A stretch of 51,769 bases of DNA from Caldilineales bacterium (GTDB lineage Bacteria > Chloroflexota > Anaerolineae > J102), in assembly GCA_026417535.1 (NCBI GenBank), contig JAOADB010000002.1:1-51769 (forward strand), written 5' to 3'. The notes under the pieces are model-generated. The model searched no databases, was not told the DNA's origin, and saw only the letters and a list, made by a program, of their open reading frames with translations. Positions 3,536 through 14,648 of this stretch are shown piece by piece (the first letter of the stretch is position 1; the number at the start of each line of letters is the position of its first letter). A program made the position numbers and the translations under genes.

Positions 3536-4480
3536 TTACGAGGCGAGCGGCCACTCGCCTTCTTCGTACACGTAGTCCAGCCAGCCGTGGGGGTCCATCT
3601 CGCCGGCCGTGATGGCGAAGAACCGTTCCTGGATGGCTTTGGTGATGGGGCCGCGAGTGCCGCTGCCCACCGGGATGCGGTCCACCGAGCGGATGGGGGT
3701 GATCTCGGCGGCAGTGCCGGTGAAGAACAACTCGTCGGCCAGATAGAGCATCTCGCGGGTCAGGTAGGCGTATTGCACTTCGTAGCCCAGGTCACGGGCC
3801 AGGGTGATGGCGCAATCGCGGGTGATGCCGGCCAGGATGGAGGCCGACAGGGGCGGGGTGTAGATGACGCCGTCGCGGATCAAAAACAGGTTCTCGCCCG
3901 ACCCCTCGGACACGTAGCCGTGGATGTCCAGGCTGATGCCCTCGGTGTAACCCAGGTCGTGGGCTTCCATGGCCACGTACTGGCTGTTGACGTACTGGCC
4001 GCCGATCTTGCCCAGAGGGGTGAGGGAACCGGGTGGCATCCGTCGCCACGAGCTGACCATGACATCCACCCCCTGTTCGATGGCCTCGGGCCCCAGATAA
4101 CGGCCCCAAGGCACGGTGCCGATGACGACCTCGACCGGACACTTGCGGCCGTCCACGCCCAGGGTCTCGTACCCCCGGAACACGATAGGCCGGATGTAGC
4201 AGGCATCCTGTTTGTTCGCCCGGATCGAGGCTTTGCAGGCGGCGATCAGCTCGTCCACGCTGTAGGAGAGGGGGATGCGCATGATTTTGCAGGAATCATG
4301 CAAACGCCGCATGTGTTCGCGGCCGCGGAAGATAGCCGGCCCCCGCGGGGTGCTGTAGGCGCGAATGCCTTCAAAGGCGCTGGAGCCGTAATGCAAAGCA
4401 TGGGTGAAGACATGGACTTTGGCCTCATCCCAGGGGATGAGCCGGCCGTTCATCCATATCCAATCGGCGCGCATGGGCAT
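3536..4480 (-). CDS. ilvE: branched-chain amino acid aminotransferase
   Basis: WMNGRLIPWDEAKVHVFTHALHYGSSAFEGIRAY and ...TAAEITPIRSVD are class IV aminotransferase signatures. Start moved to ATG 4480 (GAGG 9 nt upstream); the track start at 4516 is TTG. Confidence 0.92.
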   Translation of the reverse strand: MPMRADWIWMNGRLIPWDEAKVHVFTHALHYGSSAFEGIRAYSTPRGPAIFRGREHMRRLHDSCKIMRIPLSYSVDELIAACKASIRANKQDACYIRPIVFRGYETLGVDGRKCPVEVVIGTVPWGRYLGPEAIEQGVDVMVSSWRRMPPGSLTPLGKIGGQYVNSQYVAMEAHDLGYTEGISLDIHGYVSEGSGENLFLIRDGVIYTPPLSASILAGITRDCAITLARDLGYEVQYAYLTREMLYLADELFFTGTAAEITPIRSVDRIPVGSGTRGPITKAIQERFFAITAGEMDPHGWLDYVYEEGEWPLAS

Positions 4481-4642
4481 AGGAGATACCTCGCGATAGG
4501 GTGAAAAGCGGAGCAAAAACGGAAAGACGCGTCATTGCTATTGTAATGGGAACCACACGTAATGTTCCAATCGTGCTTTTCGTTTGGAACACCGTGCTCA
4601 AAAAGGCCAGTCGTTGGCCCGCCGTCGGCAGCCATCGCCAAC

Positions 4643-4744
4643 AAAAAATCCCTTCATCCACACAGGGACGAAGGGACGCTCCGCGGTACCACCCTGATTG
4701 TCGGAAACGGTGGGGGCGTGACCGGCACGCCCCCACGAAAACGA
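4643..4744 (-). promoter_or_regulatory. T-box leader, 3' module: Stem III, T-box antiterminator sequence, intrinsic terminator
   Basis: Minus-strand RNA contains GUGGGGGCGUG-CCGGU-CACGCCCCCAC (4736-4710), AAUCAGGGUGGUACCGCGG (4699-4681) and UCCCUUC-N14-GAAGGGA + U6 (4676-4643). The terminator 5' arm overlaps the antiterminator 3' arm. Confidence 0.85.
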
Positions 4745-4820
4745 TGGTGGAGCAGAAGGGACTCGAACCCATGACCCCCACAATGCCATTGTGGTGCTCT
4801 CCCAGCTGAGCTACTGCCCC
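4745..4820 (-). tRNA. tRNA-Ala (anticodon GGC), CCA encoded, embedded within the T-box leader
   Basis: GGGGCAG-TA-GCTC-AGCTGGGA-GAGC-A-CCACA-ATGGCAT-TGTGG-GGGTC-ATGGG-TTCGAGT-CCCTT-CTGCTCC-A-CCA. It has the G3:U70 Ala identity pair and one U50:U64 mismatch in the T stem. Confidence 0.88.
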
Positions 4821-5008
4821 ACGCTGTGGTTTCCGACCACTCGACGCTGTAACGGGCTGACCCGTCGCCGCCTACTGCCGGGGGTACCGGTTTCGTCGGC
4901 GCCGCTACCAGGCGAGTTCGTCCTCACGCAGACCCGTGGGCTGCATCACCGGGCTCACACCGTCCCCGGTTCGCTGGCGGGTTGGCCTACTACTCCTGGT
5001 CGTTGCGC
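4821..5008 (-). promoter_or_regulatory. T-box leader, 5' module: Stem I with specifier CUC (Leu), Stem II region, F-box
   Basis: Minus-strand RNA contains GCGC-AACGA-CCAGG-AGUAGUA..., the AG-bulge-like AGCGAA, and distal hairpin CCGGG-ACGGUGUGAG-CCCGG. It continues ...GACGAA-CUC-G-CCUGG-UAGC-GGCGC (CUC = + strand gag 4914-4916) and has F-box CCGUUA (4850-4855). Confidence 0.8.
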
Positions 5009-5046
5009 TTGGGTTCTCGGTTGTTCGCCCGGGGGAGCCAGGCCAG

Positions 5047-5119
5047 TGGAGCTGAGGGGACTCGAACCCCTGACTTCTACAGTGCGATTGTAGCGCTCTC
5101 CCAGCTGAGCTACAGCCCC
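5047..5119 (-). tRNA. tRNA-Ala (anticodon CGC), no encoded CCA
   Basis: GGGGCTG-TA-GCTC-AGCTGGGA-GAGC-G-CTACA-ATCGCAC-TGTAG-AAGTC-AGGGG-TTCGAGT-CCCCT-CAGCTCC-A. G3:U70 pair present and all stems are perfect. Confidence 0.95.
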
Positions 5120-5131
5120 GGAGTTACTTTT

Positions 5132-5160
5132 AGTCTATCCGGGTACAGAGGATTTGTCAA
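5132..5160 (-). promoter_or_regulatory. sigma-70-type promoter driving tRNA-Ala(CGC), the T-box and tRNA-Ala(GGC)
   Basis: Minus strand reads TTGACA-17 nt-TAGACT, with the -10 element 12 nt upstream of the tRNA 5' end. Confidence 0.65.
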
Positions 5161-5338
5161 GTCCGTCAACGGCAACGGCGCGGGGTAAGGCCGACCCGCC
5201 TTTGTTGGCCCGCAGTCGGCAGGCTTATAATCTGCCCTTGTTGCCCCCTCTGTGGGCTTTCCCGCAAACCGTGTCCCTCGCCAGATGCCACAGTCTCCGG
5301 CCGGGATACCCGCTTTCCCTTCTCATGGCCTCGCAACC

Positions 5339-6232
5339 ATGCCCATCGGCGAACTGGCGGCCCTGACCACGTCCCTGTGTTGGGCGTTCACCTCGACCTT
5401 TTTCACCCTGGCCGGTCGTCTGGTCGGTTCGGTGACCGTCAATCGCATCCGCTTGCTCTTAGCCGTCGTTTTTCTGCTCCTGGCCCATGCCCTGTTCCGT
5501 CTGCCCTTGCCCCTTCACGCCGAACGCGAACGCTGGTTCTGGCTGGGGCTTTCCGGTATCCTGGGGCTGGCCTTGGGCGATGCCTTTCTCTTTCAGGCCT
5601 TCCTCTGGATCGGGCCCCGGCTGGCCATGCTCTTGCTCAGCCTGGCCCCGGTGTTGGCCACCGTCATCGCCTGGGTCTTTTTGGATGAAAAGCTGGCGCT
5701 GCTCCAGCTCATCGGCATCGGCGTCACGCTGACAGGTGTGGCGGCGGTGGTGGCCGAGCGTACCGCCCCCGACGCCACGACCATCAGCGGCCGCCGGCTT
5801 TTGGGCCTGCTGAGCGGTCTGGCTGCTGCCCTCGGTCAGGCCCTGGGCCTGATCACGGCCAAGCGGGGCCTGGCCGGCGATTTTCCCGCCCTCTCCGGTA
5901 CCCTCATGCGTATGGTCGTGGCCGCCGCGGTGATGTGGGGGGCGGCCATCCTGTTGGGACAGGCTCGTGCGACCCTACGCCGGGTGCGCGAACGACCGCA
6001 GGCCCTACGCTACCTCCTGGGCGGTGCCTTTTTCGGCCCTTTTCTCGGCGTCACCCTCTCGCTGGTAGCCGTCCAGGCCACGGCCGTCGGCATTGCCAGC
6101 ACGCTGACGGCCCTGCCGCCGGTGTTCCTTTTGCCCATCGGCCGCCTGGTCTTCAAGGAACGGATCGGACCCCTCGCCATCATCGGCACCCTGGTGGCCG
6201 TAGCGGGCATTGCCTTGCTGGCCTTGGGCTGA
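5339..6232 (+). CDS. EamA/DMT-family transporter
   Basis: About ten hydrophobic segments. MPIGELAALTTSLCWAFTSTFFTLAGRLVG... and a second EamA repeat LLSGLAAALGQALGLITAKRGL.... Start moved to the third in-frame ATG, where the first TM helix begins. Confidence 0.8.
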   Translation: MPIGELAALTTSLCWAFTSTFFTLAGRLVGSVTVNRIRLLLAVVFLLLAHALFRLPLPLHAERERWFWLGLSGILGLALGDAFLFQAFLWIGPRLAMLLLSLAPVLATVIAWVFLDEKLALLQLIGIGVTLTGVAAVVAERTAPDATTISGRRLLGLLSGLAAALGQALGLITAKRGLAGDFPALSGTLMRMVVAAAVMWGAAILLGQARATLRRVRERPQALRYLLGGAFFGPFLGVTLSLVAVQATAVGIASTLTALPPVFLLPIGRLVFKERIGPLAIIGTLVAVAGIALLALG

Positions 6233-8978: not shown

Positions 8979-10799
8979 CTAAATCACCACCCGGCGGGCG
9001 ATATCATCCTGGGCGCGGGCGATGAAATCCTCCACCGTCATGGCACCCACACGCTCGCCGGAGCGCAGCCGCACGTTGACCGTGCCTGCCGCCATCTCCT
9101 GGGCGCCCAAGACGAGCATGTAGGGGATTTTTTGCAGCTGGGCATTGCGGATTTTGGCGTTCATGCGGTCGTCGCTGTCGTCCACAACCACCCGCAGCCC
9201 GGCCGCCTTCAGCCGCGCGGCCACCTGATGGGCGTACTCGTTCTGGTCGGAGGTGATAGGGATGACCTGGACCTGCACCGGCGTCAGCCAGACCGGGAAA
9301 ATGCCGCCGTAGTGTTCGATGAGCACGCCGAAGAAGCGCTCGATGCTGCCCAACAGGGCGCGGTGGATCATGTAGGGCCGATGCTGGGCGCCGTCTGGGC
9401 CGATATAGGTCAGATCGAAGCGTTCCGGCAGGTTGAAATCGAACTGGATGGTGCTGAGCTGCCAGGGGCGTTCCAGGGCATCGGTGACGTAGATGTCAAT
9501 TTTGGGGCCGTAGAAGGCGCCGTCGCCTTCGTGGATGTCATAGGGCAGGCCCGTGCGCTGAATCGCAGCCAACAGCGCGGCCTCGGCTGCGTCCCATTTC
9601 TCTTCCTCGCCCACACGCTTGGGCGGTCGCGTGCTCAGGTACATGGCGAACTGCTCGAAACCGAAATCGCGCAGCAGGCTCAGGCTGAAGGCCAGCACCT
9701 TGTCAATCTCGGCGGGCATCTGTTCGGGCGCACAGAAGAGGTGGGCATCGTCCTGGGTGAAGCCGCGCACCCGCGTCAGGCCGTGGAGCGTACCCGACCG
9801 CTCGAAACGATAGACCGTGCCCCACTCGGCCAGGCGCATGGGCAGGTCCCGGTACGAGCGCACATCGCTCTTGTAGATGTGCACGTGGAAGGGGCAGTTC
9901 ATGGGCTTCAGGTAGTACTGCTGCCCTTCGATTTCGATGGGCGCGTACATGCTCTCACGGTAGAAGGAGAGGTGCCCGCTCGTCTCCCATAGGACCGAAC
10001 GGCCGATGTGGGGGGTATAGACGAACTGGTAGCCGCCCTCGAGGTGCATCCTCTTGGAATGCTCCTCGATGAGATGCCGCATGAGCGCGCCCCTGGGATG
10101 CCAGAGGATGAGGCCGCCGCCGATCATCTCGTGGTTCGTGCTGAAGAGGTCTAGTTCCCTGCCCAACTTGCGATGGTCGCGCTGTTTGGCCTCTTCCAGC
10201 CGGCGCAGATAGGCTTCCAGCTCCTTGCGGTTCTTCCAGGCCGTGCCGTAGATGCGTTGGAGCATGGGCCGGCGCTCGTCCCCGCGCCAGTAGGCACCCG
10301 CCACCTGAAGGAGCTTGAAACCGTCGGCGGGAATCTGGCCGGTGTGCTCGACGTGCGGCCCGCGGCACAGGTCCTCGAAGGTGTCGTGACGATAGGTGGA
10401 GATTTCCACAGCGCCTTCGACCTTCTCGCCGTATTCATCCGTGCCGCCAGCGGCAAGCCCGTCAATCAGCTCCAGCTTGTAGGGCTGGTCGGCGAAGAGC
10501 GCGCGCGCCTCTTCCGCGCTGACCACCCGCTTGATGAAGGGATGGCGGCCGGCGATGATCTGGCGCATGCGTTTCTCGATGGCCTCTAGGTCCTCCGGCG
10601 TGAAAGTGCGCAGGTTGCCGTCGGCGTCGCGGCCCAGGTCGAAATCGTAGTAGAAGCCGTCTTTGATGGGCGGGCCGATGGCGATCTTGGCGTCGGGGAA
10701 ACGCTCCAGCACGGCCTGAGCCATCACGTGGGCGGCCGAGTGGCGGATTTTGTAGTACTCGTCGTATTGACCGTTACCGGACGAGGATGGCGATGACAT
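8979..10799 (-). CDS. thrS: threonyl-tRNA synthetase (lacks the N-terminal TGS domain)
   Basis: 606 aa. The editing-domain motif RHSAAHVMAQAV lies about 20 aa from the N-terminus. Class II core present (FRYE-like YRFERSG, GAFYGPKID) plus a C-terminal anticodon-binding domain. Confidence 0.96.
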   Translation of the reverse strand: MSSPSSSGNGQYDEYYKIRHSAAHVMAQAVLERFPDAKIAIGPPIKDGFYYDFDLGRDADGNLRTFTPEDLEAIEKRMRQIIAGRHPFIKRVVSAEEARALFADQPYKLELIDGLAAGGTDEYGEKVEGAVEISTYRHDTFEDLCRGPHVEHTGQIPADGFKLLQVAGAYWRGDERRPMLQRIYGTAWKNRKELEAYLRRLEEAKQRDHRKLGRELDLFSTNHEMIGGGLILWHPRGALMRHLIEEHSKRMHLEGGYQFVYTPHIGRSVLWETSGHLSFYRESMYAPIEIEGQQYYLKPMNCPFHVHIYKSDVRSYRDLPMRLAEWGTVYRFERSGTLHGLTRVRGFTQDDAHLFCAPEQMPAEIDKVLAFSLSLLRDFGFEQFAMYLSTRPPKRVGEEEKWDAAEAALLAAIQRTGLPYDIHEGDGAFYGPKIDIYVTDALERPWQLSTIQFDFNLPERFDLTYIGPDGAQHRPYMIHRALLGSIERFFGVLIEHYGGIFPVWLTPVQVQVIPITSDQNEYAHQVAARLKAAGLRVVVDDSDDRMNAKIRNAQLQKIPYMLVLGAQEMAAGTVNVRLRSGERVGAMTVEDFIARAQDDIARRVVI

Positions 10800-10816
10800 G
10801 GTAGATTGACCTGTTA

Positions 10817-11137
10817 TTAGGGGATTTGTGCAAGAAGCGCGGAAAGGATAGCAAAATCTAAGAGAACATCAAATGCTAGAGTCAAAAACAATACGATCAG
10901 CACAAAGCCAATAATTGCTCGAAAACATCCTGTTGTACCGGAAATGACGACATCAAAAGGAGATGGACCTTCCTTCAAACTTGGTGCTGTAGCAGTAAAC
11001 ATCTTACCGTAGTCTTTTCTTCCACTTACAAGTATGCGCCGACAATAGCCGGCTATGCCTAAAAAGATAAGAAACAAAATAAACCGTCCTGAGATCTGAA
11101 ACGTTTGAGCGCTGAACTGGCGAAGGGCCTCCTCCAT
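10817..11137 (-). CDS. hypothetical two-TM membrane protein (ORFan) in a low-GC segment
   Basis: ATG 11137 is preceded by GGAGGTGGGAG. Product MEEALRQFSAQTFQISGRFILFLIFLGIAGY...FRAIIGFVLIVLFLTLAF. The sequence is visibly AT-richer than its neighbours. The track start at 11227 is TTG. Confidence 0.5.
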   Translation of the reverse strand: MEEALRQFSAQTFQISGRFILFLIFLGIAGYCRRILVSGRKDYGKMFTATAPSLKEGPSPFDVVISGTTGCFRAIIGFVLIVLFLTLAFDVLLDFAILSALLAQIP

Positions 11138-11220
11138 AGGCTCCCACCTCCGTACCAAACGAAGTGAGCTGCCGGGCAACGGGACCGCGGTGTCAGGGTC
11201 GGCAGATGGGTGGGTGGAAT

Positions 11221-11248
11221 TTGACAATTAGAACAAATGTTCTATCAT
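11221..11248 (+). promoter_or_regulatory. promoter TTGACA-16-TATCAT with an embedded perfect palindrome TAGAACAAATGTTCTA (GAAC-N4-GTTC, LexA/Cheo-type SOS box)
   Basis: -35 at 11221-11226, palindrome at 11229-11244, -10 at 11243-11248; about 80 nt upstream of the GTG start at 11330. Confidence 0.6.
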
Positions 11249-11329
11249 ATTCAAGACGATAGACGATGGGGATCGTCCATCGTCTCCTCTCTACACCGAC
11301 CGTCGCGACATGAATCGGAGGATAAAACC

Positions 11330-11845
11330 GTGTTTCAGCAACCTGTACCACAACGCTCCGGGCCCGACGGCCTGTGGGCCTGGTTCGATACGCTTCTCGG
11401 TCTTGCCAACTGGGTGGATCGCCTGGAAGGGTGGATCATGAGCCTGCGCTATGGCGATTACGCCTCGGCGCGGCAGCGCGGCCTCCTGGCGCTGATGGGC
11501 GAGATGGGCAGCAGCCTCCTAGAAACGAACACCTACCATTTTGCCATGCGGCGTGATGGTCACTACTCGCTCAACGAGGTCGAGGCGCTCCTTAAGCGCT
11601 ATGGCATTCCCATCTTCGGACGCACCCACGATGCCCACTGCCTGTACTTTCATGTGAAGAAGCGGCAGGCCCGTTGGGCCGAGTACATCCTGCTAAGGGC
11701 CGGAGTCGAACTCGTCAATCCGGTCTTTGATCCGCGCAATCCGGGCTATGCAGCCCATCATACACCCGGTACGATGCCGACGCCGTGGAGCGAGGCCAAG
11801 ACGGACAACACCTCTTTCTGGCAACGTGTGTTTGGTGACTGGTAA
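11330..11845 (+). CDS. hypothetical protein (171 aa), no recognisable family
   Basis: GTG start with GGAGGA 7 nt upstream. The composition is non-repetitive and protein-like (..NTYHFAMRRDGHYSLNEVEALLKRYGIPIFGRTHDAHCLYFHVKKRQARWAEYILLRAGV..). Confidence 0.6.
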   Translation: MFQQPVPQRSGPDGLWAWFDTLLGLANWVDRLEGWIMSLRYGDYASARQRGLLALMGEMGSSLLETNTYHFAMRRDGHYSLNEVEALLKRYGIPIFGRTHDAHCLYFHVKKRQARWAEYILLRAGVELVNPVFDPRNPGYAAHHTPGTMPTPWSEAKTDNTSFWQRVFGDW

Positions 11846-12002
11846 TTGGCGATTCGTTATTTGTTGCTTATCTTGCGTTTTGGCTTACTAACAGAATGAA
11901 GAACGAAAAAGATTCGTCCTTCGTCTTTCGTCCTCCGTCATCGCAAACGGCCAAAATTCAAACCAAACGGCCAATTTACCAGTTACCAGTTACTTATTAC
12001 CC
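11841..12002. repeat. MITE-like element: heptamer terminal inverted repeats (GGTAATTGG... / ...TTACCAGTTACCAGTTACTTATTACCC) around an AT-rich core
   Basis: The ends match the element at 48215-48434. The left end overlaps the TAA stop of the 171-aa gene. The core contains a pentamer-repeat hairpin (11901-11940). Confidence 0.6.
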
Positions 12003-12024
12003 ATTTCTCAAGGTGCGGACATGC

Positions 12025-12284
12025 AAAAAAGCCCCGTCGTCCATGGGGACGCGGGGCCGCGTGGTTCCACCCCATTTGACCGCCCGGTACGGGCGATCCA
12101 CTCAGGAAGCCGCTAACGGGGCCAACCGGGTGAGGTTACTCGGCAGGACCTTTCCCCTCACCGCTCACGGGGGGTTTTCGCAGGGCTTCGGCGAGGGCGA
12201 CTTGCAGCCAACGGCCACCCCTCTCTGGCGCTTCGGCGCTCTGCTACTCGTCCCGGTCAACGCGTTCACAAACTCGATTGCCGA
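12025..12284 (-). promoter_or_regulatory. T-box riboswitch leader no. 2 (complete, terminator type) with no downstream CDS
   Basis: Minus-strand RNA has UUGACCGGG-ACGAGUAGCAG..., GCGAAAA-CCCCCC-GUGAGCGGUGA-GGGG, and ...GAGUAACCUCA-CCCGGUUG. It also has F-box CCGUUA, Stem III CGCCCG-UACC-GGGCG and T-box AAAUGGGGUGGAACCACGCGG (12077-12057). The terminator is GCCCCGCGUCCCC..GGACGACGGGGC + U6 (12057-12025). Confidence 0.85.
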
Positions 12285-12358
12285 TGGGCGGTACAAGACT
12301 CGAACTTGTGACCTCCACGATGTCAACGTGGCGCTCTAGCCATCTGAGCTAACCGCCC
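12285..12358 (-). tRNA. tRNA-Val (anticodon GAC), no encoded CCA
   Basis: GGGCGGT-TA-GCTC-AGATGGCTA-GAGC-G-CCACG-TTGACAT-CGTGG-AGGTC-ACAAG-TTCGAGT-CTTGT-ACCGCCC-A; all stems are perfect. Confidence 0.95.
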
Positions 12359-12369
12359 GAGCACAGGTC

Positions 12370-12399
12370 ATTATACGCCAGAGCGCGGTCGGATGCCAA
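12370..12399 (-). promoter_or_regulatory. sigma-70-type promoter driving tRNA-Val and T-box no. 2
   Basis: Minus strand reads TTGGCA-18 nt-TATAAT, with the -10 element 11 nt upstream of the tRNA 5' end. Confidence 0.65.
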
Positions 12400-12505
12400 A
12401 TCGGTCGGGGTGCGGTTCAACGTTTTTGCAGCGTTCTCGCGAGGGTTCACCCATCGCCTGACGCTTTCGCCGTCCCGTGGCGCCTACCCCGTTCCCCTTG
12501 CCTCG

Positions 12506-13936
12506 CTACGGCCTCAACCGATAGTAGAACACGGCCACGCGGGTAAAACTGGCGGCGTCCTCGCGGCGGCCGTGGCTCTCCAGCCAGCGGCGGATCCGCC
12601 CCTCGCGGTCATAAAAATCCGCCTCGCTCTCGATCAGCCACACGCCCTTGTAATCGGCCAGCATGGCTGCCAGCCGTTCGGGCACTTGGGCGGCATCCTC
12701 CGGCCGGTTGGCGTAGGGCGCCTCTAGCCAAGGATAGGGGCCGGGGTCGTAGTAGCGATAGGTGTGGCGGATGTAAGGCATGAGGAACAGGGTCACATCG
12801 CCGGGTTGCCGTCGCGGGGCCACGTAGGCCGCCGCCGCCCGAAAATCGGACTTGATGGGGACGTGCATCTGCTGCCAGCCCACCCCCAGCTGAAAAGCCA
12901 ACCAGCCGCCCAACAAGGCCAGGGCCAGCTCCCGCCGGCGTTCGCCCACCTTGACCACCCCCCAGGCCATGAGGAGCACCTGCGCCGGCAATGTCCAAAT
13001 GAGATAGCGGTCCGTGTACAGCGGCGTAACCAGGCAAATGAAGTACAGGCTCAGCAGCGGTACCAGCCACCATGCCGCCAACAGACGGCCGGCGTATGGA
13101 TGGAAGGGCCGGAGAAAAAGGCCTGCCAGCAGCAGAAACACGGCCGGCGCCAGCACCCACATGCCCGGCAACACGGGGATGCCGGCCAGCTGCGCCGCCC
13201 AGGTGACGAGAAGCATCCGTCCCAAGGGCACGAAAGCATGGCCCGTGGCGAAGTCGGGATCGGTCAGCAGCGTCCATTGCCAGCCGATCAGGGGCAGATA
13301 GGGCAACACGAGCACGGCCAGAGCCGCGCCGAAGGCTCGCCAGCGTCGTCGCCAACGAGGGACGAGGAGAACCCAGCTCACCTGCAAAGGAATGACCAAG
13401 GCCACCAGCACGTGAAGATAAAAGCCCAGGGAGGTCAACGCCAACCACACCGCCCAGCGCCACCACCCGCCCCGTTCCATGGCCCGGACAAAAGCCCACA
13501 ACACGGCCAGCACCGCGGTCACCACCAGGGCGTACATCTTGGCTTCCTGGCTGTACCACAGATGGTAGGGATTGAAGGCCAGCAACAGCGCCGCGATGAG
13601 CCCCATCCGCCGCGTATGGAGCCATGAACCCCACCGATAGACCAGGGGGATGGCCAGGACGCCCGCCAGCGCGCTGGGAAAGCGCAGGGCGAACTCACTA
13701 TGCCCGGCCAGGGCCAGCCAGGGACGCAGCACCAAGAAGAAAAGGGGCCCGTTTTCACCCGGTCGGGTGAACATGGCCAGCGCCTGCGCCAGCGGTCGTG
13801 TGGCAAAGCGCAGGCTATCGGTCTCATCGCGCCAGAGCGATTGCGCGTCCAGGCCGTAGAGACGCCAGGCCCAGGCGGCCAGCACCAGACCCAACAACAG
13901 CACAGACGCATGCCACGAGCGTCGGGCGACCATCAT
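12506..13936 (-). CDS. GT-C fold glycosyltransferase (PMT_2 / ArnT-like, GT39/GT83-type)
   Basis: 476 aa and polytopic. The first-loop acidic motif is SLWRDETDS. FLVLRPWLALAGHSEFALRFPSALAGVLAIPLVY is typical of dolichyl/undecaprenyl-phosphate-sugar transferases. Confidence 0.8.
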   Translation of the reverse strand: MMVARRSWHASVLLLGLVLAAWAWRLYGLDAQSLWRDETDSLRFATRPLAQALAMFTRPGENGPLFFLVLRPWLALAGHSEFALRFPSALAGVLAIPLVYRWGSWLHTRRMGLIAALLLAFNPYHLWYSQEAKMYALVVTAVLAVLWAFVRAMERGGWWRWAVWLALTSLGFYLHVLVALVIPLQVSWVLLVPRWRRRWRAFGAALAVLVLPYLPLIGWQWTLLTDPDFATGHAFVPLGRMLLVTWAAQLAGIPVLPGMWVLAPAVFLLLAGLFLRPFHPYAGRLLAAWWLVPLLSLYFICLVTPLYTDRYLIWTLPAQVLLMAWGVVKVGERRRELALALLGGWLAFQLGVGWQQMHVPIKSDFRAAAAYVAPRRQPGDVTLFLMPYIRHTYRYYDPGPYPWLEAPYANRPEDAAQVPERLAAMLADYKGVWLIESEADFYDREGRIRRWLESHGRREDAASFTRVAVFYYRLRP

Positions 13937-13943
13937 GACGCAC

Positions 13944-14648
13944 TCACGACCGAGGCCCGGTCAGGCGTTGGGCCCGCCGGTGCAGGTAGAAAAAGCCCAC
14001 AGCCAGGATGAAAAAGGTGATCACCCCGCAGCCCAGCAGGAAGTAGGCCGTGTAGAGCACAAAGGTATCAATCAGCCTGACCAGCGGGTCGGTCGTCTCG
14101 ACCGGGGCCATCGCTTCGGCCGTCACCGTCACCGCCGTGGTGGGCACGGTGACGGTGATGCCCTCGCCGGGCGTCGGCAGGGGCAAAGGCGCCGCGACCG
14201 TCGGCGAGAGGATGACCGGCGGCAGGCCCGGCAGCGGCGGCGACGGCGTGGCGAGGGGGGTGGGTGTTTCACCGGGCAGAGGCGTAGCGGTGGGGATGGG
14301 CGTCTCGCCCGGCAGAGGGGTGGCAGTTGGAAGGGGTGTTTCACCGGGCAGAGGCGTGGCAGTGGGGATGGGCGTCTCGCCCGGCAAGGGGGTGGCCGTC
14401 GGCAGCGGCGTGGCCGTAGGGATGGGGGTGGCCGTCGGGAACGGCGTCGCCGTGGGCGCAGGCGTCGCCGTGGGCACGGGGGTACTCGTGGGCACGGGCG
14501 TGGCCGTGGGGCTATCGGTCTGGAATGCCCGCGCGGCCAGGGGGCCGACGGCGTTAAGACCGACGATAACGGCCAGGGTGGCCAGCGCCAGCCCAAAGAG
14601 CGCTGCGTGGCGTCGGGCAAAGCACACGAGAGAAGAGAAGCGATACAT
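13944..14648 (-). CDS. membrane-anchored Thr/Pro-rich tandem-repeat protein
   Basis: N-terminal signal-anchor, then about 130 aa of TATP(V/L/I)P and PGETP(I/L)PTATPL repeats (DNA about 14240-14515), then a C-terminal TM helix plus basic tail. Its stop is 7 nt before the GT-C gene start. Confidence 0.65.
   Translation of the reverse strand: MYRFSSLVCFARRHAALFGLALATLAVIVGLNAVGPLAARAFQTDSPTATPVPTSTPVPTATPAPTATPFPTATPIPTATPLPTATPLPGETPIPTATPLPGETPLPTATPLPGETPIPTATPLPGETPTPLATPSPPLPGLPPVILSPTVAAPLPLPTPGEGITVTVPTTAVTVTAEAMAPVETTDPLVRLIDTFVLYTAYFLLGCGVITFFILAVGFFYLHRRAQRLTGPRS

Follow-up and report, generated by a model that had tools for sequence, protein, structure and literature searches.

The window, i.e. 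the whole stretch of 51,769 nucleotides of Caldilineales DNA that was analysed, carries on its minus strand a tRNA-Val(GAC) gene (12285..12358, found by ARAGORN and Rfam with 67.8 bits; CCA is not encoded), which lies 15 nt upstream of a T-box leader (12042..12269) with an intrinsic terminator (12025..12057). Further downstream, the same strand encodes a small membrane protein of 106 aa with two TM segments (10817..11137) and, starting 18 nt after the end of that gene, ThrS (thrS, 8979..10799), a threonyl-tRNA synthetase of 606 aa with tRNA_SAD, tRNA-synt_2b and HGTP_anticodon domains, for which an exact-protein look-up returned no recorded match. Between the T-box and the membrane-protein gene lies gene X on the plus strand (11330..11845), convergent with the T-box and divergent from the membrane-protein gene; its product, of 171 aa, belongs to the long form of an uncharacterised protein family. 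The 1.2 kb block that separates the T-box from thrS has a GC content of 41-55%, as opposed to ~65% around it.

An earlier description, made from the letters of the DNA and hereafter called the sequence-only reading, had pointed to a complete T-box abutting tRNA-Val(GAC), to the lack of a gene right after it and to a convergent plus-strand gene with an SOS-type box. All of this was recovered: the tRNA (12358..12285) is directly upstream, the 180 nt after the terminator hold no credible small ORF, and the gene at 11330-11845 is preceded by a GAAC-N4-GTTC sequence, with the thrS start at 10799. What had been called a repeat element is merely two short heptamer arrays (11913-11939 and 11976-11993) in the low-GC spacer (11846..12024) that reaches from the T-box terminator to the stop codon of gene X. 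The spacer also holds a second hairpin (11922..11898, -13.1 kcal/mol, weak U-tail), 100 nt past the T-box terminator and on the same strand. Elsewhere in the window, a minus-strand stretch of 74-76% GC with strong GC skew (13944-14648) encodes a 234-aa protein consisting mostly of (T/I)P(x)PTATP-type Pro/Thr repeats with hydrophobic segments at the termini, and two tRNA-Ala genes (GGC and CGC; 4745-4820 and 5046-5119, minus strand) lie ~230 nt apart.

The T-box leader and its specifier codon

The leader (12269..12042, minus strand) matches Rfam family RF00230 over the full length of the model (positions 1-219) with 106 bits and an E-value of 1.8e-22, the gathering threshold being 93 bits, which confirms that a T-box leader had rightly been called on this strand. 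The leaders of relatives with the same split arrangement, in which T-box and thrS are parted, score 72-105 bits. No further RNA families were found in 10700-12450 by an Rfam E-value scan. In the covariance-model alignment, Stem I comprises a K-turn (GCGUUGAC ... GUGAGC), a specifier loop (AGUA ... GAA-N-codon-N) with GAGUAG (12249-12244) as its 5' side, an AG bulge (CAGAGAG, 12227-12221) and a distal loop (12212-12201), all of which align to RF00230. These are followed by Stem II (12162-12129) with its S-turn GAGUAA (12141-12136), the IIA/B pseudoknot element (12128-12114) with the F-box CCGUUA inside, Stem III with its flanks (GAGUG-Stem III-AA, 12103-12076; in T-boxes Stem III is flanked by RRRxG ... 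AA, PMC7583486) and the T-box sequence AAAUGGGGUGGAACCACGCGG (12077-12057) of the antiterminator. The terminator is an 11-bp hairpin with a 1-nt bulge (12057-12031, -23.5 kcal/mol, z -3.7) and a run of six U (12030-12025), and it uses the 3' strand of the antiterminator, so that the two structures compete. F-box, Stem III, T-box sequence, terminator and U6 were thus all present as first described. Two details were not: the supposed AG-bulge-like GCGAAAA is really the specifier loop, and Stem I appeared some 50 nt longer than usual because it had been merged with Stem II.

The structure is well supported by comparison of 13 aligned leaders. In the Rfam-derived antiterminator state 93% of cells are paired and 23 pairs have changed on both sides, a level of covariation reached in 0 of 500 shuffles, and slid controls are only 40-49% paired. 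The helices of Stem I (helices 1-5) covary, Stem II has six covarying pairs, and the terminator helix is 95% paired with compensatory changes. The 7-nt T-box bulge UGGAACC (12063..12069, by RF00230 alignment) is invariant in all 13; its UGGA would pair with the tRNA 3' end UCCA, and it predicts U73 as discriminator base of the cognate tRNA. Neither the window nor any related locus fetched contains a tRNA-Thr gene in which this base could be checked. By every sequence and structure criterion tested the element is a member of RF00230, and these features predict a T-box riboswitch of the canonical, transcriptional kind with specificity for tRNA-Thr.

The specificity follows from the codon in the specifier loop. 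The specifier occupies positions 2-4 counted from the 3' end of the bulge (TBDB rule, PMC7778990), and in GAAAACCC (12179-12172) these positions read ACC (Thr, 12175-12173). ACC is the specifier of 60% of Thr T-boxes (PMC7778990) and agrees with the amino acid of the downstream thrS. The specifier loop aligns with the pattern GAA-A-ACC-N in the window and every split relative, and 52 of 55 related T-box leaders upstream of thrS have the block [G/C]AA-N-ACC-N-helix-GAG. A run of six C could in principle let the specifier frame slip, but relatives with GAAAACCACC fix it as ACC followed by A. A conserved residue 3' of the specifier codon has been described (PMC7583486); in the window this base is C instead of the usual purine, which is A in many relatives. 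The specifier had previously been sought in GAGUAACCUCA (12141-12131), which is the Stem II S-turn together with the Stem II 3' strand, and had been read there as CUC (Leu, 12134-12132), a placement that the alignment overturns. An overlapping ACC (12136-12134) had been noted as fitting thrS; this triplet, too, is in the 3' strand of Stem II.

Just upstream of the tRNA gene is a promoter-like site, TTGGCA-18-TATAAT (12370..12399, minus strand, 11 of 12 matches), which is the presumed promoter of the tRNA-Val/T-box transcript. It is the sole sigma70-like site on the thrS strand in 10500-12800, with none between 12370 and thrS, in a simple and insensitive promoter scan. Since the 15-nt gap between tRNA and T-box contains no terminator or promoter signals and this is the only promoter on the strand, tRNA-Val and leader are probably co-transcribed, with the leader as the 3' trailer of the tRNA. 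One related locus is organised otherwise: between tRNA-Val and T-box (1411-1480), L011 has a TTGACA-17-TATAAT promoter as well as a terminator (hairpin and T-run), making tRNA and leader separate transcription units.

The thrS locus in relatives and the age of the split

A search with the ThrS of the window yielded 80 Chloroflexota loci from Caldilineales and Anaerolineae (numbered with the prefix L), the closest relative being L001 with 96% ThrS identity. In L002, L006, L010-L014, L016 and ~45 further loci, thrS is preceded at 50-260 nt by a T-box motif, and in ~25 related loci tRNA-Val(GAC) abuts Stem I of the T-box, ending 200-290 nt before the motif. Contiguous tRNA/T-box/thrS units were confirmed by Rfam, e.g. 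in L006 (tRNA 5639-5712, T-box 5727-5967, thrS 6001), L012 and L016. The tRNA-Val(GAC)/T-box/thrS unit is widespread in Anaerolineae and Caldilineae, and the arrangement is therefore ancestral. In L025/L026 a T-box-like motif occurs 1343 nt before thrS; it was rejected as unrelated, as it is inside a coding region beside aro genes. The flank of the L016 locus contains a SAM riboswitch (RF00162, 88.7 bits, 12291-12407, minus strand).

tRNA-Val(GAC) is found directly 5' of a Thr T-box in ~25 Anaerolineae and Caldilineae lineages with ThrS identities down to ~48-60% (L001-L006, L011, L013, L014, L018, L023, L029, L035, L036, L038, L040, L044, L050, L052, L057, L077, L079, L084, L088, L089). A non-cognate tRNA gene and a T-box leader have here been kept together over great evolutionary depth, and no reason for the pairing of Val with Thr is evident. 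Extra DNA separates tRNA-Val from the T-box in L019, L033 and L056 (1.1-1.3 kb) and in L042 and L070 (0.5-0.6 kb), and thus the tRNA-Val/T-box/thrS junctions seem to be prone to insertion. In L077, a co-oriented gene for a 263-aa TPR-like protein (5158-5949) lies between the T-box (motif 5021) and thrS (5989), which makes this a further lineage whose spacer upstream of thrS has gained a gene. In the searchable literature, coverage of which is incomplete, we came across no description of a thrS T-box from Chloroflexota, of a tRNA-Val/T-box fusion, of the X/membrane-protein cassette or its nesting, or of a second promoter past the T-box terminator such as relatives have.

In the window and in at least ten related lineages the unit is split by an autonomous two-gene cassette, consisting of X and the membrane-protein gene, between T-box and thrS (L001, L003, L004, L005, L007, L008, L088, L089, L090 and L084/L085). 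The T-box of the window is thus the ancestral leader of thrS, with its gene now 1.2 kb downstream, and it only looks orphaned because an old cassette sits in between. This had been one of the options offered by the sequence-only reading, and it is supported both by the Thr specifier ACC and by synteny, since relatives that lack the block at 10.8-12.0 kb have tRNA-Val and T-box 50-260 nt upstream of thrS. The word orphan is misleading, as the split has been kept in at least ten lineages, the T-box is under purifying selection (see below), and in the 1.6 kb before thrS the scan of the thrS strand gave no sigma70-like promoter other than that of tRNA-Val.

The split state is patchily distributed on the ThrS tree: the window and L001 are split and their sister L002 is not, and the split loci L003-L005, L007 and L008 have unsplit ones as neighbours. 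Within the main group, the identity of X tracks that of ThrS in nine lineages, for example with 86% for X and 95% for ThrS between L090 and L007, 82% and 91% between L089 and L005, 77% and 86% between L003 and L004, and 60-68% and 96% between the window and L001. This argues for an old insertion that was largely inherited vertically and then lost several times. The X of L008 is an outlier with 33-43% identity, which suggests replacement or separate acquisition.

Separation from thrS has not eroded the T-box. Split T-boxes are as intact as unsplit ones (antiterminator state, 40-45 of 43-47 pairs; terminator, 10-11 of 11 pairs). The window and L001 are both split, and their T-box leaders are 89.5% identical, as compared with 66% at four-fold degenerate sites of thrS, which is near saturation; purifying selection has therefore acted on the T-box during its separation from thrS. 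By blastn, neither the membrane-protein genes nor the spacers of the two loci can be aligned. Comparison of 10817-11845 in the window with 4933-5987 in L001 gives 42% identity for the membrane proteins, and both membrane-protein genes are AT-rich; judging from such comparisons, the cassette is evolving far faster than its flanks. Nucleotide similarity between the two loci stops just upstream of the tRNA-Val promoter (12404 in the window, 4460 in L001), and the PMT_2 glycosyltransferase gene of the window (12506-13936) has no counterpart at that place in L001.

The cassette between T-box and thrS

Gene X has 50 database homologues, and neither its product nor the 106-aa membrane protein has a family match in Pfam, NCBIfam, PHROGs or PADLOC. 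An AlphaFold2 model of the X protein (pLDDT 78.8) has a beta-alpha-beta-beta-alpha-beta core, and its matches in the PDB were ACT/ferredoxin-like, none of them significant (the best with E 0.098 and TM ~0.3). Wherever it was examined, X is divergently paired with a gene for a protein of 104-135 aa without a Pfam match. The membrane-protein gene of the window had been regarded as a low-GC ORFan; it is no ORFan, as homologues occupy the same position in all cassettes, i.e. in at least nine related loci.

X is preceded by a promoter-like site TTGACA-16-TATCAT (11221..11248, plus strand), and between its two hexamers lies the palindrome GAACAAATGTTC (11231-11242) of the LexA/Cheo type GAAC-N4-GTTC, which serves as LexA operator in bacteria of the B. 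subtilis type (PMC4234289). X is thus putatively controlled by LexA (SOS), with ATAGAACATTTGTTCTAT as the putative LexA target sequence. The motif occurs twice in the window against 0.68 expected, which alone is not significant. Its position is, however, conserved in ten cassette copies; every copy examined has it between the two divergent genes, and it is the sole conserved block of that intergenic region. A weak promoter towards the membrane-protein gene may overlap the LexA box. The other match in the window, GAACGCTGGTTC (5528-5539), lies ~400 nt from the two tRNA-Ala genes.

An alignment of X proteins distinguishes a long form, with ~24 extra residues after an RYGDY motif, from a short form. 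Every long-form copy examined sits between T-box and thrS, in lineages down to 48% ThrS identity; all short-form copies (L081, L082 and L086) are in unrelated genomic contexts. The unlinked cassettes have a convergent promoter-like site 100-200 nt past X (L081 4541-4569, L082 4695-4723, L086 4577-4605), which points across X, in antisense, in the direction of the membrane-protein gene. Transcribing X in antisense over a long distance thus seems to be a property of the module itself, and the cassette may always include an antisense transcription unit. In seven split relatives there is a conserved promoter-like sequence, TTGAC-17/18-TGG-yAyrAT (P2), just past the T-box terminator on the thrS strand (L001 4905-4933, L003 4732-4760, L004 4779-4807, L005 4756-4784, L088, L089 and L090). 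Its hexamers are fixed and its spacer is variable, and it aims into the 3' end of X and onward to thrS. P2 is absent from the window, which has short heptamer and 11-nt duplications at its position. The locus L084, from a distant member of the Anaerolineae, has an ORF of 221 aa after the T-box and on the same strand (4468-5133, minus strand of the locus); it overlaps the stop codon of the convergent X by 4 nt, lies ahead of the membrane-protein gene and thrS, and has no family in Pfam, NCBIfam, PHROGs or PADLOC.

Proposed control of thrS across the cassette

We infer that read-through gated by Thr-tRNA reaches thrS, a reading to which we give somewhat more than even credence. Transcription would begin at the promoter at 12399..12370, the leader being made as 3' trailer of tRNA-Val(GAC). 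With charged tRNA-Thr, it would stop at the U6 terminator (12025); uncharged tRNA-Thr, bound to the ACC specifier and the UGGA bulge, would let the antiterminator form. Polymerase would then pass 12025 and make ~0.9 kb of untranslated RNA antisense to X, which would be silent while LexA is bound, and transcription would run on into the membrane-protein gene and thrS, giving more ThrRS. This is supported by the promoter scan of the window, which gave no further sigma70-like site on the thrS strand, by the short distance between the membrane-protein gene and thrS, by the promoters that read antisense through X in the unlinked cassettes as well and, indirectly, by the purifying selection on the T-box in the split state. 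Counting against read-through are the ~890 nt of untranslated antisense RNA that would have to be crossed, a likely Rho substrate, and the weaker hairpin in the spacer (11922..11898). The presence of P2 in most split relatives counts against T-box control of thrS, as P2 could feed thrS there without the T-box. Also to be weighed on this side are the possible weak promoter at the LexA box and the low sensitivity of the promoter scan.

An alternative is that the T-box no longer controls thrS, which would be served by cassette promoters (P2 or one in the divergent region), and has been kept for antisense transcription over X, so that the charging of tRNA-Thr would be linked to how the SOS-box gene is expressed or to collisions with that gene. 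X is convergent with the T-box and directly in the read-through path, P2 is conserved downstream of the T-box in seven relatives, cassettes unlinked to thrS also have the antisense promoter, and long-form X is always linked to the T-box/thrS locus, all of which would suit such a role. P2 would, however, already give constitutive antisense transcription in the relatives, so that a Thr-gated addition seems redundant, and the window has neither P2 nor another promoter found on the thrS strand. Moreover, nothing explains why an SOS gene should answer to threonine, ACC being simply inherited from the thrS leader. We therefore regard this alternative as unlikely, and the other option of the sequence-only reading, a stand-alone terminator gating antisense transcription over the SOS-box gene, is, as its sole function, less parsimonious than read-through to thrS.

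That the T-box is a relic, serving only as the terminator of tRNA-Val since the insertion and with sensor domains that have yet to decay, is very improbable. The terminator is strong and the nearest same-strand gene downstream is 0.9 kb away, as a relic would have it; but the whole leader has stayed nearly 90% identical between the window and L001 where neutral sites are close to saturation, and Stem I, ACC, Stem II, F-box, Stem III and UGGA are kept with compensatory changes in at least nine split lineages. A bare terminator would need none of these sensor elements, and the conservation indicates that the T-box is more than a relic or a plain terminator of the tRNA gene. A stand-alone leucine (CUC) T-box without a cognate gene, to which the CUC triplet followed by A at 12134-12131 might have pointed, has practically no chance, being refuted by the covariance-model alignment, which puts this triplet in the Stem II 3' strand, where it is not kept in relatives, and by the ACC in the Stem I specifier loop of the same 52 of 55 leaders.

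The T-box, read as a leader of thrS, would be a functional counterpart of the Bacillus subtilis thrS and thrZ leaders, which it resembles in domain order, K-turn, AGUA/GAA specifier loop, ACC specifier, F-box, UGGN bulge, competing terminator and antiterminator, and thrS as target. It differs from them in being the 3' trailer of tRNA-Val without a promoter start of its own, in lying 1.2 kb from thrS with a convergent gene and a second, co-oriented gene between, and in having C instead of a purine 3' of the specifier. In the thrU-tyrU-glyT-thrT-tufB operon of E. coli, tRNA genes and a protein gene are expressed from one promoter, and tRNA processing makes the 5' end of the mRNA. The window would likewise have a tRNA and a protein-coding part on a single promoter, but with a riboswitch between them, and its tRNA (Val) is not the one that is sensed (Thr).

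LexA-regulated SOS genes of Gram-positive bacteria include that for YneA, a small membrane protein that inhibits division. The cassette resembles such genes in having a perfect GAAC-N4-GTTC inside the promoter of X, in a divergent region beside a gene for a small membrane protein. It differs in that its two products have no detectable homology to any named SOS protein, that LexA control of X is putative, and that the cassette is nested in what is predicted to be a riboswitch-controlled operon. In excludon-type arrangements, a long transcript runs antisense through an oppositely oriented gene and on into downstream genes; the proposed transcript would similarly cross X into the membrane-protein gene and thrS, and would differ in having a T-box as its upstream gate. 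The T-box itself is of a known kind, and its genomic arrangement is uncommon but conserved. As predicted here, the context is unusual in having a non-cognate tRNA gene as the 5' part of the transcript, a conserved convergent SOS-box cassette nested between riboswitch and target, and, in relatives, a second promoter after the terminator.

Whether the nesting is itself a device is a separate matter, and that the LexA-box gene between the Thr T-box and thrS makes a functional two-input switch, as opposed to a tolerated insertion, is a speculative and distinctly doubtful proposal. It would fit the strict linkage of long-form X to T-box and thrS down to 48% ThrS identity, and the core fold of the X model, which is ACT-like by a structural match that is not significant. 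If it were true, transcription of X after SOS derepression would collide with read-through from the T-box (and P2) and throttle expression of ThrRS and the membrane protein, and threonine limitation would silence X by antisense transcription.

Pipelines that assign the nearest downstream ORF as the target of a T-box would mis-assign or drop the T-box of the window. The locus indicates that a riboswitch can be under selection even though 1.2-1.4 kb and a convergent gene with a damage box part it from its target. If the favoured read-through is true, these Chloroflexota would have a natural case of long-range T-box control, exerted via antisense transcription of a gene of another regulon.
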